Below are positions 40,653 to 56,321 of a stretch of DNA of 64,000 bases, piece by piece (the stretch's first letter is position 1; every line of letters begins with the position of its first letter). The DNA is from Trypethelium eluteriae (Eukaryota). Location: positions 1 through 64,000 of the forward strand of contig JAVECL010000016.1 in NCBI GenBank assembly GCA_051942245.1, written 5' to 3'. The position numbers were made by a program, and so were the translations under genes. The notes below the pieces were generated by a model. It ran no database searches. It was given only the letters and a program-made list of their open reading frames with translations, and had not been told where the DNA came from.

Positions 40653-42610
40653 TCAGCCTGGCAGATGGCTCGGCATTCCAACTACTTGCTCCCAGCCAAA
40701 CACGCTATTCCAGCCTGCAGACTGAGAGGACGGCCGTTGGTGAGCAGCTGCCTCTGCCTCTGAAAGGGTCTGAAAATATCGCCACCCCATCCGACAGTCG
40801 CAGTCCCATCCGTGCAGTTGAGCATGCACTTGGACCTGCGCTTGCGCTCTTGTCATGGCCAATATTTTAGTACCACTGGGGCAGGTACAAGTGATGTCGC
40901 TAATGTTACCCAATCCTGTTGTTGGCGTTGGAGGTGAGGGTATGGCCGGAATATGTTTGCCAGCAGTAGTTCGTGGCTGCGACGTTGTCGATCGAAAAGG
41001 ATGTTGAAGATCTTGAGCTCTCCCTGCTGGTTTCGGAAAAGGATGGCAAGCGCAGCTGGTGCCGTTATCTATGTAATCTGTGACTGCGGGCTGAATTGGG
41101 GGTGTGGGCGGAAGTGGGCTAAAGTGGCTCTTTTGAATGAGGCATCCTGGGCAGTTATAGCCATCGCGGCACTGACATATCCTAGCCGGACCACTATGAG
41201 GAGAAAAGGTATACTGGTGTATAAAAAACGGTACTGAATCGAGTGTCTTGGGTGCCTCTTCGCCACTCGAGGGGCTGTCGGTATCGAAAGCCATTGATTC
41301 CGGCCCTTGATCATGGAAATCGAGCTCTGCAGTCTTCCTAAATGGACGAGATTCATCAATGCTGGAGTGAATCTGTGTTGTGGTGTTTTGTGTACCGCTC
41401 TGCTGCTGCGCGGCGAGATGTCGATATGCTAAATCCTGTGCCACTGTTCGGTCCGGCGTCGAGGAAGGCCATTGAACAGAGATCTCGGGAATATTTTCAA
41501 GATGCCACTGGCTTCTTGGTGGCTGAGCAGTCTCGTAAGTTGAGTTCACTGACGTTATACTGTCGTTCTCCACCATGCCTGAATAGTAACGTACGTAGTC
41601 AATAGTCGGTTTATTTTTCGGATGCATTGGGCAGCCAAAACAAGTGCAGTCATCACCACAAGTACAATTATGATCGAAGCTTGTTTTTGCACTGTTGATC
41701 AGCGAATCTTGCTGCTGCGCTGCAAAGGTGGTTTCCGCCTGCTGCTCCACACACCCACTTGAGATTTCAAAGCCGTTGGGGGGTTGCATTGATGAACGTC
41801 GTCTGGTGGCTACCGGCGGAGCAATACTAGCAGTGTTTTCTTCTTCAGTTTGTTCGTTATGCTGGGACGCAGCGTCTGATCTCCCACTCGCCTCGGCTTG
41901 CAGCGATGAAATGTCTGGACAGCAGCAGCTTCTGATAGCTCCTCCAGTCGATAAGGCTGAACTGTCAGTTTCTAGCTGCCTCGACTCCACTGTTGATGAT
42001 CTCAAAGTTCCGTTGGAATGCACTGGAGTATCGGGCAGTTCCTTCATCGGAGCCTCTGGAGGCATGGCTACAGACGGTTCTCCACAGCAGGACTTTCCAG
42101 ACGGATCATCTGGGACCATATCTGCTGCCCCGCTTTCGACAGAGTCTAGCACAGCACGTCGGTCCCTTTTCAAGCCATTCTCTATATTCGAGAGAACGAT
42201 GCTGCTGGGCGGTCTTTGAGCCTTTGCCTTGGTCACTCGAGCAGAGGGGCCTCCCTTTACGGTGTTCTCTGGAGGCTTGCAGACACAGCGATTTGCTTTC
42301 AAGAGTGAGTTTGGCTTTTCGAGTGAAGTACATTGTTGGACATACATTTAGGAATCGTGTAGTTCAGAACGATCTGGTCGCAGTTACATGAGCCAGGCGG
42401 GTGTGGACATGCACTCAGTGGTCGACCAGGCTTACGGACCTCCACAAGCACTCTGTCCTTGTGTTCGCATTTGGAAGAGCGATGCCCGCGAATGCATGGA
42501 CCGCTGTCTTGCTTCAGTGGTGATCTTCGAACTGTATTAATGTGATCGAGCGTAGTCGAAACATACCAGGCAACCTTTCTCTTTGTGCCCTGAATGTCGA
42601 GCTCGGGCAT
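40653..42610 (-). CDS. Copper-fist DNA-binding transcription factor (Ace1/Mac1/CufA family), 3 exons
   Basis: After removing intron 42504-42566: KVACGPCIRGHRSSKCEHKDRVLVEVRKPGRPLSACPH; intron 42296-42345; Cys-rich repeat CTCGDDCTCFGCPMH. Confidence 0.92.
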
Positions 42611-43513
42611 GTTTTTGACTTTCAGGCGCACCAGATACTCTGTCACTCGAAAAAGGAGCGGATTTGACACAAAAGGAGATCGCAAAATGAGAGCGTGAGT
42701 TCCTTAGTCAGATTGATTGCAAGGGTAAGCATCTGCAATTTTTGCTACTCTATTCGACGCGTTTCGGCCATTCATGGCGAACTCGAGGCGGCTGACGCAT
42801 TTCGCCACTGGCCGCGACGGATAGAGCTCTGCTCATACCTTCCACTTTACAGGATAGCCCGGGAGTCCAGATCTGGCTGCATGATCCGCGTCGACGGTAG
42901 CGCCCAGAAGCGGGTCTCACGCTGGGCGTAATGGCGGGCTTTTGAGCAAGTTTATGCAACAGCGGGGTGGGTGGTACGATATTTCTGCTGATCCTTGACC
43001 CAATCGCTTAAGCAAGAACAAAACATGCCGACCTGATTCCCGGAATGTTTTTTGAAGGGATTTGTGAAGTATTGCCGTCAATCTGTGGTTCGGCCGAGTC
43101 AGACTGCTTTGAAATCGTAAGGAGTTCAAAGTGAGCGATAACAAAATACTAGCCCACTGAAATAACAACATAAACAAAAAAGATTCTAGGGTAATTCGCT
43201 TCTAGAAAGTTAGTCTACTGAGAAAAACATAATATAATTATATAGATAAAAGTAATTAAGAATGATTCATAAATGCAAATTTTTTCAACGTTCAAGTTTT
43301 CCTTTATGATATTCTGAATATTATATTGTACTATGTGAGACCTATATGCCACAGCTGCTTATATAGCAGAGCAGGATTAATCGAACCCTTTCATTAAGTG
43401 GTCATGTTCATCTAACAAGGACGTGGATACATGATACATTTGTTTCATTCCTCGCTATCGTAAACTCTGACGCTTCGTAGTTCCTTCTTCTCATATGTAT
43501 TTACAAGATCATT

Positions 43514-53899: not shown

Positions 53900-54624
53900 C
53901 GCTGCATCAATAAATTACGCGGACGAAATAAAATCACAACTTGGCTAGTGTATCGAAAAAGCTTACTAGAGCCATACGTACAAGTTCATATTTGTATAGC
54001 AAATGTGCGATTCGTGAGCAAAGCTTGCAAGATCTCGTTCACAAGAATGCAGCATAGAGGTATCCAGCAATGCTTTGGCGAGTCGGGGTATCGGCCTCAA
54101 GCTAGATCTCACTTGGCTTAGTGTGGTGTTAGTGGCGCTCATCAGCGTCCGTCATGCATAAGATCGCAAGACCCCCTAAAGAGCCAGTATGAGGGATTTT
54201 GAGCTTGTTTTGTTCTCTGCATGGCGAATATACGATCCAAAAGTAAAAAAGGGCAACATACCACCCTTGCACTAAATGCACCTTGTGGGGTACGCCCACA
54301 GGACCGTCCGTTAACTGCATCTGACCCCTTTTTTTTCCCAGGGAATTGATGAAGTCAGATCGATGACAAATGCGCTCGCGGAGTCTGCTGCATGAAGGCC
54401 GAGTGAGCGGGTGGGGTTTTACAAGACCTTTGCAGTAGAGTATTGACTATTGTAGCGGACCAGCTCCCGATGTGACTCTCCACATAATTGCATATAAGCT
54501 TTGACTCAGCACAGGCACGCACAGCGCAGGCACGCAGGTATCAGTAGCAGTGTCATTTTTCCCATTCCAGATCTGTATCATAGTGGCAGTAACGAGCTGA
54601 GGGCATTTAAGAACATTTCCACAA

Positions 54625-56321
54625 ATGCTGAGTAACGTAGTATCCACCGCTTCGGTAATCGCTGCGGTTGCAGCTCTCGTGGGTCGTTGATCCAGACTTG
54701 AGAAGCTTTGCTCACCACTACTAGTTCGTCATTGGCCACCTTCTTCGAGCTCTTCAAAGTTGGTTCTTCCATCCCCTACGTTCGGTCCCGGGTCCCTGGA
54801 TCAATAGCATATCGGAGCTGCCTGCTGCTTTAGCACTCGTGAGAGGAGAACAGCACATCTATTACCGGTCGCTGCATGAGAAATATGGCTCCGTGGTACG
54901 AGTCTCTCCAAACGAGCTGAGTTTCATTAGCGTAGATGCTAGAGAAGAAATCTATGGTCATCGAGTAGGTTGCAAGTGAATGCCAAAAGCACCAGTCCTA
55001 ACCCAGCATGCAGAAAGGTGGCCCATTTATGGAGAAAAGTCCTATATTCCTTGGAGCTGTTGGAAATGTAGACGGTCAAACGGGCGTAAGCCTAGCTGTG
55101 AACAAGGAGCACACTCGCCAGCGCAGAGCTTTAGGTTACTTGTTTTCCAACAGCGCTCTACTCCACCTGGAAAGTATACTTCAAGTCCATATCCAAAAGT
55201 TGGTCGCCATACTCGAGACCATGTGTGCCAATGAACAAGCCGTGGATTTTTCGGATTGGTGTAAGCCTCCAACTCGGCTGTGCCCTTTTGTTTTTGCCGA
55301 GCTAACAGCATAGATAGACACGTATCTTGCGTTCGATATGATGGGCGATTTATGCTTTGCAGAGCCTTTCGGGTGTTTAGACCATGCATCGGCTACAGAG
55401 TGGTCGACTTCTGTTATCAATGTCTTCATAGCAGCTACGTGGACGCAGGCCATACGCCGACTGTCCGGGGTCGGCACATGGCTTGAGTCTTTGATAACAC
55501 GGCTTCTTGTTCCTGCAAAAGCCGCTGCTTGGAGGAAGATCCATTTGAGCAACTCGCGCGAAAAGACAATTGCCCGCCTTGCAGACCCAAATCGAGACCA
55601 CAAGGACTTTATGTACCAGATTCTTGAGAATGAGTCCAGAAAATCTCTCTCCCAAACTGAGATTATCCTAAACATGGGATTGTTTATTAGCGCTGGAACT
55701 GATACAACGGCTACTGCTCTCACTGGCTGGACCTACTTTATGTGTACACACCCATATGTGTATAGGCGATTGGTAAGCGAGATTAGAGAGGCTTTTCTGA
55801 CGGCCGACGACATCAAGTGGGAGAAAGTGAAAGAACTTCAATATTTCGACGCGACTATAAACGAGGCACTACGTCTCTTTCCACCCTCACCAGCGAGTCA
55901 ACAACGGCTAGTTCCTCTTGGTGGGGCTACAATTGCCGGCTACTACGTGCCTTCAGGTACAACAGTCGCCGTTCCACCTTGGGTAGCAACGCATTCACCT
56001 CTGAATTTCCACGAGCCGGATCTATATAGACCAGAGCGATGGTTAGGAAAAGATGTCAAGTTTCGAGGTGATCACCTCAACGCTTCATTGCCATTCGGAA
56101 CAGGACCTAGGGTATGCATTGGGAAGAATCTCGCCTACCTAGAGATGAGACTCATTGCTGCTCACCTGGTTTGGAACTTCGATATCGAACTTGCCAAGGG
56201 CAAATACGAAGCGAAGAATCAGATGTGGGGCTTAGACGGTCAAATGAATCCCATGAAGATATTTCATTCGATGACCAAACCACCATTATGGGTACAGCTG
56301 AAGCCAGTTCATCGATCTTAA
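54625..56321 (+). CDS. Cytochrome P450 (CYP65/TRI11-like secondary-metabolism clan), 4 exons
   Basis: ATG 54625; introns 54679-54724, 54965-55013, 55261-55317; HPLRSVPGP, AGTDT, EALR, PERW, PFGTGPRVCIG. Confidence 0.95.

Follow-up and report, generated by a model that had tools for sequence, protein, structure and literature searches.

Two fungal gene clusters already in print resemble the locus described here, a run of eight genes at positions 40653-56321 of a 64-kb window (the whole stretch of DNA analysed, positions 1 to 64,000 of Trypethelium eluteriae contig JAVECL010000016.1). The first is the Plant Communication Associated (PCA) cluster of Trichoderma harzianum, which spans about 15 kb and comprises pca1 to pca7 (PMC12855858; bioRxiv 2023.04.12.536597). 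These genes encode a ferric reductase (pca1), a Ctr copper transporter (pca2), a Tri101-like transferase (pca3), an octopine/nopaline dehydrogenase (pca4), a major facilitator superfamily (MFS) transporter (pca5), an S-adenosylmethionine (SAM) methyltransferase (pca6) and a cytochrome P450 (pca7), with bidirectional promoters shared by pca1/pca2 and by pca3/pca4 (PMC12855858). Plant recognition raises their expression up to 1000-fold, and root colonisation is lost in pca1 and pca5 deletants. antiSMASH returned nothing for the cluster, and cblaster and clinker comparisons identified pca4-6 as a widespread core with no polyketide synthase (PKS) or nonribosomal peptide synthetase (NRPS) core gene. 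All seven genes are arranged alike in Trichoderma, Metarhizium, Pestalotiopsis and Talaromyces, the genus Fusarium being reported as lacking the full cluster, and a staphylopine-like role in metal acquisition is raised in the discussion of that paper (PMC12855858).

The second, named Cu-Responsive gene Cluster (CRC), is that of Pseudogymnoascus destructans, VC83_01834-01838, in which five genes lie in the order ferric reductase (FRE), MFS transporter, opine dehydrogenase (ODH), SAM enzyme and P450 (PMC12113139). Copper regulation of the CRC has been shown: it is up-regulated when copper is withheld with bathocuproine disulfonate (BCS) and down-regulated by copper excess (PMC12113139), and in the proteome under copper restriction PdSAM increases more than 70-fold and PdOpDH 20-fold (PMC13208438). 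The P. destructans authors suggest an opine-type metallophore (PMC12113139; PMC13208438). In Discula, the four genes with the strongest down-regulation include an ODH, together with a ferric reductase and a Ctr transporter, which lends circumstantial support to a copper reading of the Trichoderma result. The cluster was found independently by two groups, and neither cluster paper mentions the other.

The T. eluteriae locus is a Trypetheliaceae member of this published cluster type; its correspondence to both clusters is shown by gene content, and that to PCA also by homologues. Since the gene set and the opine-metallophore idea have been printed for T. harzianum and P. destructans, the cluster is not undescribed. 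Both the kind of cluster and the hypothesis have been published before; the present locus adds a member from a lichen fungus, in which a copper sensor is linked to the cluster. We consider it probable that the locus is a copper-starvation module, regulated in the manner of Mac1, which couples uptake through FRE and Ctr to an opine-type pathway free of a core synthase. Stop-to-stop open reading frames (ORFs) of the window, 63 translations in all, were scanned against Pfam. Together with motif inspection, this recovered intact all eight contiguous genes that a first-pass annotation of the window had named:

40653 to 42610, minus strand: Cu-fist transcription factor (TF), Mac1/Cuf1-like; exons 42610-42567, 42503-42346 and 42295-40653
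43514 to 45685, minus strand: FRE, ferric/cupric reductase of "type A", PCA1 counterpart; Ferric_reduct, FAD_binding_8 and NAD_binding_6 domains
46375 to 46990, plus strand: Ctr copper transporter; Ctr PF04145, Met-rich N-terminus, intron 46830-46878
47427 to 48821, minus strand: acyltransferase (AT), TRI101-like and BAHD-type, PCA3 counterpart; TRI-like_N E 1.3e-60, Transferase E 8.6e-18
49635 to 50717, plus strand: ODH, resembling N-(1-D-carboxyethyl)-L-norvaline dehydrogenase (CENDH), PCA4/PdOpDH counterpart; Octopine_DH PF02317 E 1.3e-44
50905 to 52641, minus strand: MFS transporter, DHA1-type, PCA5 counterpart; MFS_1, about three exons
53120 to 53899, minus strand: methyltransferase (MT), class-I SAM-dependent, PCA6/PdSAM counterpart; Methyltransf_11 E 6e-24
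54625 to 56321, plus strand: P450, PCA7 counterpart; p450 E 4e-56, short exon 1 followed by an intron of about 46 nt

The three head-to-head pairs described in the first-pass annotation are borne out by the coordinates, namely FRE(-)/Ctr(+), AT(-)/ODH(+) and MT(-)/P450(+). The intergenic gaps, in order from TF to P450, measure about 903, 689, 436, 813, 187, 478 and 725 bp, all below 1 kb. Catalytic or structural motifs are present in the P450 (heme loop FGTGPRVCIG), AT (HQTMD, of the HxxxD type, and DFNLG), Ctr (Met motifs at the N-terminus and MLAVMTM, of the MxxxM type) and FRE (HPFT and GPYG), and all genes therefore look intact. The exon-1 pattern of the P450 is also seen in its homologues. 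One public RNA run (X1), of small share (0.11), gave eight short contigs (11 pieces) on the window. Spliced contigs, which match the window at 100% identity, skip stretches of 53, 59 and 49 bases that have GT..AG ends and so confirm two introns in FRE (45019-45071 and 45181-45239) and the one in Ctr (46830-46878), while other contigs lie over AT (48105-48504) and MT (53222-53850). This coverage shows transcription of FRE, Ctr, AT and MT and confirms that the FRE and Ctr introns are real. TF, ODH, MFS and P450 had no contig, a gap that carries no weight. In agreement with the first-pass annotation, PKS, NRPS, terpene-synthase and isocyanide-synthase families had no match among the 63 ORFs of the window. 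The antiSMASH result for PCA (PMC12855858) bears out its expectation that tools requiring such a core would miss the cluster. A lone AMP-binding gene lies far outside the cluster (23047-25041, minus strand).

The seven genes that follow the TF belong to the same families as pca1-7 and are contiguous, with FRE/Ctr and AT/ODH divergent as in T. harzianum. Neither cluster has a core synthase, and the PCA promoters carry a palindromic motif. ODH is 66% identical to its homologue in Trichoderma virens, 67% in Metarhizium anisopliae and 68% in Talaromyces islandicus, and MT is 71% identical in T. harzianum, 74% in T. virens and 71% in Pestalotiopsis fici, all PCA-carrier species; across fungal classes, MT homologues are 68-87% identical. 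ODH is also 99% identical to a Viridothelium virens protein, and adjacent or near-adjacent locus tags for ODH and MT occur in Trypethelium subeluteriae, Bogoriella, Alyxoria and Phialocephala. The window differs from PCA in having a Cu-fist TF adjoining and in holding only half of the palindrome in its AT/ODH promoter. Its host is a lichen-forming Dothideomycete (Trypetheliaceae), not among the taxa named in the portions of PMC12855858 available to us; that paper ties the cluster to plant recognition and mentions Mac1 or copper-response elements zero times. All five CRC families (metalloreductase, MFS, opine dehydrogenase, SAM enzyme and P450) are present in the window and in the metagenome loci described below, a correspondence judged by gene content and not by sequence. 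The CRC differs in having five genes, and the passages of PMC12113139 that describe it mention no Ctr and no acyltransferase; its reductase may be the other paralogue, as in the metagenome loci. Taken together, PCA and CRC look like one conserved system. A literature search on whether a product of the cluster has been characterised, or a link to Mac1 drawn, returned nothing beyond the PCA, CRC and Mac1 papers. The fungal "tryptopine" opine synthases were considered as relatives and set aside, as they belong to another family, PF18631 (PMC12536604).

What we take to be the strongest sequence-based argument for a link to metal uptake comes from other fungi. Metagenome contigs were scanned with the window ODH, which yielded 16 fungal loci, several of them near-duplicates, that fall into about seven lineages by ODH identity (L001-3; L004-7 and L014; L008-9; L010 and L012; L011; L013; L015-16). 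Searches by tblastn with the window exons showed that gene order matches that of the window: ODH(+), MFS(-), MT(-), P450(+). In 13 of the 16 loci, ODH has MT, or a truncated end of MT, as its neighbour; L011, L012 and L013 end inside or just beyond MFS. MFS immediately follows ODH in 10 of the 16, and the P450 follows in all eight loci that are long enough. The L004-7/L014 lineage has no MFS between ODH and MT, and MT is inverted in L010. The window TF, FRE, Ctr and AT had no tblastn match in any of the 16 loci.

Flanking genes were annotated with Pfam on nine loci (148 ORFs) and then by tblastn with one reductase found in this way. Of the 12 loci in which at least 1.4 kb precedes ODH, 11 have a ferric reductase directly upstream of it, L009 being the one without; the remaining four loci are too short to judge. 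These reductases are 47-71% identical among themselves but only 22-28% identical to the window FRE. In L004 a Ctr gene follows the P450 (16272-16709, minus strand), as it does in L014, and it has no detectable similarity to the window Ctr. The ODH of L015 and L016 (10001-11152) forms a divergent subfamily, 47-54% identical to all others; nevertheless, these loci keep the order reductase-palindrome-ODH-MFS-MT with a perfect palindrome, which suggests that the cluster architecture is old. Across these contigs ODH, MT and P450, usually with MFS, are thus collinear and have a metalloreductase as neighbour; AT and the window-type FRE and Ctr are absent from the 16 loci. The pattern points to two reductase paralogues and different Ctr genes having been independently recruited beside one ODH/MT/P450 core. 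Such repeated recruitment suggests that the function of the core is tied to reductive metal uptake. As far as our searches show, the recruitment of two reductase types, the equation of PCA with the CRC type and the reading of the promoter motif as paired Mac1 sites appear to be unpublished; the supplementary cblaster and clinker tables of PMC12855858 may cover Trypetheliales or a linked TF, and Tables S1 and S2 of PMC12113139 may be informative on orthology.

A shared promoter element accompanies the core. The k-mers over-represented upstream of ODH (12 sequences, unbiased) assemble to the palindrome GAGCAAACTTGCTCA. With at most one mismatch in its 12 fixed positions, it has 14 matches in the 256.6 kb of window and loci, against 0.57 expected. 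Every one of the 13 loci in which at least 1.2 kb precedes ODH holds one of these matches, placed 268-907 bp upstream of the ODH start, and together they account for 13 of the 14. The palindrome is kept in six of the seven lineages, the seventh having too little upstream sequence, and its flanks have diverged between the six. It agrees at 15 of 16 positions with the motif YGHGSAADHTTSCDCR, which occurs twice in each shared PCA promoter and was left unassigned by the authors (PMC12855858). The two halves of the palindrome read TTTGCTC and TTGCTCA. In Fusarium oxysporum, the Mac1 ChIP-seq consensus is DHNTGCTCANNN, likened to yeast TTTGCTCA, and Mac1 directly binds TGCTCA-type sites of the ctr3/fre9 pair and of the crm cluster, which are induced by copper limitation (PMC11563359). 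On this comparison, the PCA motif would be a palindrome of two Mac1-type half-sites. In the window, related elements were found in four promoters:

42943 to 42950, minus strand: copper-response-like site CTTGCTCA, in the TF promoter
45686 to 46374, no strand: FRE/Ctr divergent promoter, with PCA-motif-like sequences at 45888-45903 and 46097-46112 and CTTGCTCA at 46107-46114
48822 to 49634, no strand: AT/ODH divergent promoter, with AAACTTGCTCAC at 49171-49182, the right half of the palindrome conserved in other fungi
53900 to 54624, no strand: MT/P450 divergent promoter, with TTTGCTCA at 54015-54022

The FRE/Ctr promoter holds two matches to YGHGSAADHTTSCDCR at two mismatches (45888 and 46097), and the AT/ODH promoter holds none at two or fewer. 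Four of the seven YTTGCTCA sites in the window fall in the promoters of TF, FRE/Ctr, AT/ODH and MT/P450, which make up 5.6% of its length (P = 3e-4, for a pattern picked after the sites were seen). The copper link proposed in the first-pass annotation is strengthened by these Mac1-type sites and by the copper-induced counterpart in P. destructans; Mac1 binding and the chemistry stand as predictions.

The regulator itself fits this picture. A Copper-fist domain (PF00649, E 2.8e-13), split by an intron, was identified in ORF 42299-42703(-), and two GT..AG introns read from the sequence link this ORF to the long ORF 40653-42347(-). The tail is long and poorly conserved, and it carries a C-terminal Cys/His motif, CTCGDDCTCFGCPMH, with the pattern CxCx3CxCx2Cx2H. 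The consensus of the Mac1 REP repeat is CxCx4CxCx2Cx2H, and the spacing in CTCGDDCTCFGCPMH is one residue shorter than in this copper-sensing repeat. Based on the Cu-fist and the near-Mac1 repeat, the TF is Mac1/Cuf1-like, and it could still be of the Ace1 or Cuf1 type. Its long exon is 100% identical to a Trypethelium eluteriae protein, and a homologue search returned four proteins only. The locus resembles the Mac1 modules of F. oxysporum in having a divergent Ctr/FRE pair and a biosynthetic cluster in the putative regulon. However, crm of F. oxysporum has an isocyanide synthase-NRPS-like core and the window has none, and Mac1 binding in the window is predicted from its sites.

Judged by its sequence and a predicted structure, ODH belongs to the short, CENDH-like class of opine-type dehydrogenases and is competent as such. 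Among solved structures, its sole sequence match is Arthrobacter CENDH, 1bg6 (E 6e-24), the N-(1-D-carboxyethyl)-L-norvaline dehydrogenase of that organism. An AlphaFold model of ODH (mean predicted local distance difference test score, 85) was compared by Foldseek and gave template-modelling (TM) scores of 0.84-0.86 with 1bg6 at 24% identity, 0.71 with scallop octopine dehydrogenase, and 0.66-0.69 with the yersinopine, pseudopaline and staphylopine dehydrogenases. Residues G11-x-G13-x-x-G16, H194, R285 and D290 are invariant in 36 ODH homologues, and H194, R285 and D290 align with H202, R292 and D297 of CENDH, presumably its catalytic and keto-acid-binding set. Like CENDH, the protein has about 360 residues, with a Rossmann N-domain and an Octopine_DH helical domain. 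The 24% identity is nevertheless too low for substrate to be transferred from CENDH to the window ODH, and we know of no link between CENDH and metals.

The first-pass annotation had compared ODH and MT with the bacterial enzymes CntM and CntL. The comparison with CntM holds for the fold they share (TM 0.66-0.69), but CENDH is closer (TM 0.84) and no CntM-type chain was matched by the ODH sequence among solved structures at E <=0.01. The comparison with CntL fails, as MT is a Methyltransf_11 enzyme without a nicotianamine-synthase-like match. It matches 21 methyltransferase families in Pfam, and the nicotianamine synthase (NAS) family matched neither MT nor any of the 63 ORFs. Its nearest structures, among the matches listed, are an unassigned cyclopropane-fatty-acid (CFA)-synthase-like protein, phosphoethanolamine N-methyltransferases and trans-aconitate methyltransferase; neither CntL nor nicotianamine synthase is named among the 60 listed of its 69 PDB matches. 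Likewise, no CntK-type racemase was found among the 63 ORFs scanned. The bacterial cnt operons resemble the locus in setting an enzyme of the opine-dehydrogenase fold beside an MFS-type exporter, under metal-starvation control. They differ in using an ABC importer, where uptake at the present locus would pass through reductase and Ctr, and in having no tailoring by a P450 or an acyltransferase. With CntL and CntK missing and ODH being CENDH-like, the staphylopine analogy holds for one enzyme and the export logic only.

Based on these observations, we predict the following course of events. Under copper limitation, the copper-free Mac1-type factor encoded next door would bind the TTGCTCA-type elements of the shared promoters and turn on the uptake genes and the pathway genes alike. 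ODH would reductively condense an amino acid with a 2-keto acid, and MT, the P450 and, in the seven-gene form, AT would tailor the ODH product, which the MFS pump would then export. Most likely, the product would mobilise copper or shuttle it to FRE for reduction and to Ctr for import. We can further speculate, more tentatively, that PCA and CRC are one ancient Pezizomycotina cluster, controlled by Mac1 through the palindrome and making a secreted opine-type copper carrier. The plant induction seen in Trichoderma would then reflect copper starvation at the root surface, and the sensor would have been captured by the cluster in Trypetheliaceae.

Several observations weigh against this interpretation. 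We infer both the order of steps (methylation, hydroxylation, acylation, export) and the binding of copper by the product. No compound has been isolated from any cluster of the PCA or CRC type. The earlier statement that no fungal opine chalkophore is described does not hold for the hypothesis, which has been printed for both. Induction in T. harzianum came from plants and not from copper treatment, and its authors give other readings (PMC12855858). Enzymes of the CntL and CntK types, on which bacterial opine metallophore pathways rely, are missing from the pathway. No Cu-fist gene was found in the eight loci that reach at least 7 kb upstream of ODH, and no acyltransferase was detected by tblastn in the 16 metagenome loci. 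The linkage of the TF to the cluster is lineage-specific and could be coincidence. Promoter evidence in the window is also uneven. In its AT/ODH promoter, the left half of the palindrome has three mismatches and only the right half is kept. In addition to YTTGCTCA having been chosen after the fact, broader patterns gave weaker signals (TGCTCA, P 0.052; TTGCTC, 0.024; GCTCA, 0.004). Across the whole window there was no enrichment of TTTGCKCR (12 sites against 10.8 expected), YTTGCTCA (7 against 6.6), the PCA motif at two or fewer mismatches (13 against 10.7) or TGTGCTCA (2 against 2.9), so that the signal lies in placement only. A second TTTGCTCA near the P450, at 54707, falls in the predicted intron 1 of that gene and may be a branch site. 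In the promoters of the other reductase type, TGCTCA occurs in two of five loci, without enrichment and with uncertain gene starts.

Other explanations were weighed against the proposed copper-starvation module. An intracellular copper-sparing role is unlikely, but it has the support of several observations. With cytochrome oxidase crippled by copper limitation, ODH would here be a pyruvate-consuming valve that re-oxidises NAD(P)H, or else it would be part of an internal metabolite route, with the MFS protein serving disposal and with FRE and Ctr as co-regulated neighbours. Opine dehydrogenases re-oxidise NAD(P)H in anoxic invertebrates. Under copper restriction PdSAM ranks 38th in protein abundance, and an alternative oxidase (AOX) and superoxide dismutase (SOD) swap, that is, respiratory remodelling, belongs to the same copper response (PMC13208438). 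Such a rank is unusual for a tailoring enzyme. Conservation of ODH and MT at 64-87% identity across fungal classes is more typical of conserved physiology than of secondary metabolism. Moreover, Mac1 directly targets a "SAM domain" gene next to ctr3/fre9 in F. oxysporum, whose genus is reported to lack the full PCA cluster (PMC11563359; PMC12855858). However, a valve needs no P450, MT, AT or pump, and ODH, MT and the P450, usually with MFS, are collinear in every locus that is long enough. Surface reductases and Ctr have been recruited repeatedly, which suggests action outside the cell, and deletion of the MFS gene pca5 ends root colonisation (PMC12855858).

It is quite unlikely that the cluster makes nothing de novo and instead processes an aminocarboxylate of plant, photobiont or bacterial origin, for instance a foreign metallophore or opine, with ODH working oxidatively to free metal or nitrogen. 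Opine dehydrogenases do catalyse reversibly, and a lichen-forming host shares its life with a photobiont. The PCA authors, who find no core gene, themselves raise the modification of a plant metabolite (PMC12855858). The cluster nevertheless spans fungi with very different lifestyles. DHA1-type MFS proteins are usually exporters. Furthermore, strong induction of the CRC takes place in an axenic defined medium, with BCS as the sole copper-withholding treatment described in the passages concerned (PMC12113139; PMC13208438).

A similarly low probability is given to a metabolite that signals to a partner, the "plant communication" originally put forward for PCA, and is not primarily regulated by copper. 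The up to 1000-fold induction by plants and the loss of root colonisation in pca1 and pca5 deletants speak for it (PMC12855858). The same plant-recognition experiment, however, also raised two unlinked genes, a ferric reductase 21-fold and a Ctr 31-fold (PMC12855858), a signature of the Mac1 regulon. Inside roots F. oxysporum experiences copper limitation, and without mac1 it does not induce such genes in planta (PMC11563359). The CRC responds to BCS and copper with no plant present (PMC12113139), and the PCA motif itself appears to read as paired copper-response half-sites. It is very improbable that a standard Mac1/FRE/Ctr neighbourhood simply abuts an unrelated ODH/MFS/MT/P450 cluster: although the TF, AT and FRE-Ctr pair are missing from all 16 metagenome loci and free-standing divergent FRE/Ctr pairs such as ctr3/fre9 exist elsewhere (PMC11563359), the seven-gene arrangement is shared by four named genera (PMC12855858), 11 of the 12 loci that can be assessed have another reductase paralogue next to ODH, and in P. 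destructans the reductase shares its regulation with the enzymes (PMC12113139; PMC13208438).

The proposed copper-starvation module would matter beyond this locus in that fungal colonisation of plants and animals hinges on copper acquisition, as seen with mac1 of F. oxysporum and pca1 and pca5 of T. harzianum and as proposed for P. destructans on bats. The shared gene set, the motif read as paired Mac1 sites and the repeated recruitment of uptake genes turn separate reports into one testable model. If the more tentative reading of one ancient cluster is true, its product would join the isocyanides as a second class of fungal chalkophore, and the Trypetheliaceae locus would be a self-contained unit of sensor, synthesis and uptake.

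Several further genes and sites lie around the cluster. To its right are a second P450 (59500-61853, plus strand; several exons, p450 E 4e-36) and an SGL/strictosidine-synthase-like gene (62232-63311, plus strand). Both were rejected as cluster members, as they are not kept beside the core in L004, L007, L009 and L014, the loci reaching beyond the P450. The fourteenth match to GAGCAAACTTGCTCA, GAGCAAGATTGCTG with one mismatch at 61525, is the sole near-perfect copy within the window and falls inside the coding region of this second P450. Just past the cluster P450, TTTGCTCA occurs at 56986-56993 (minus strand), upstream of a 285-codon ORF (57099-57956, plus strand) that is of low complexity and has no Pfam match; this ORF may be a copper-regulated gene or nothing. 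To the left, a 442-codon ORF adjoining the TF (39139-40467, plus strand) has weak 2EXR/DUF7730 matches (E 5e-4 to 6e-3). A multicopper oxidase gene with Cu-oxidase_3, Cu-oxidase and Cu-oxidase_2 domains (27687-29506, plus strand) lies about 11 kb from the cluster on the same side. The seventh YTTGCTCA site, at 29750, is situated beyond the 3′ end of this oxidase gene and upstream of a sugar-transporter-like MFS gene (30882-32816). Far from the cluster, at 5313-6872 (plus strand), is an alcohol acetyltransferase of the AATase family, the same family as named for crmB.

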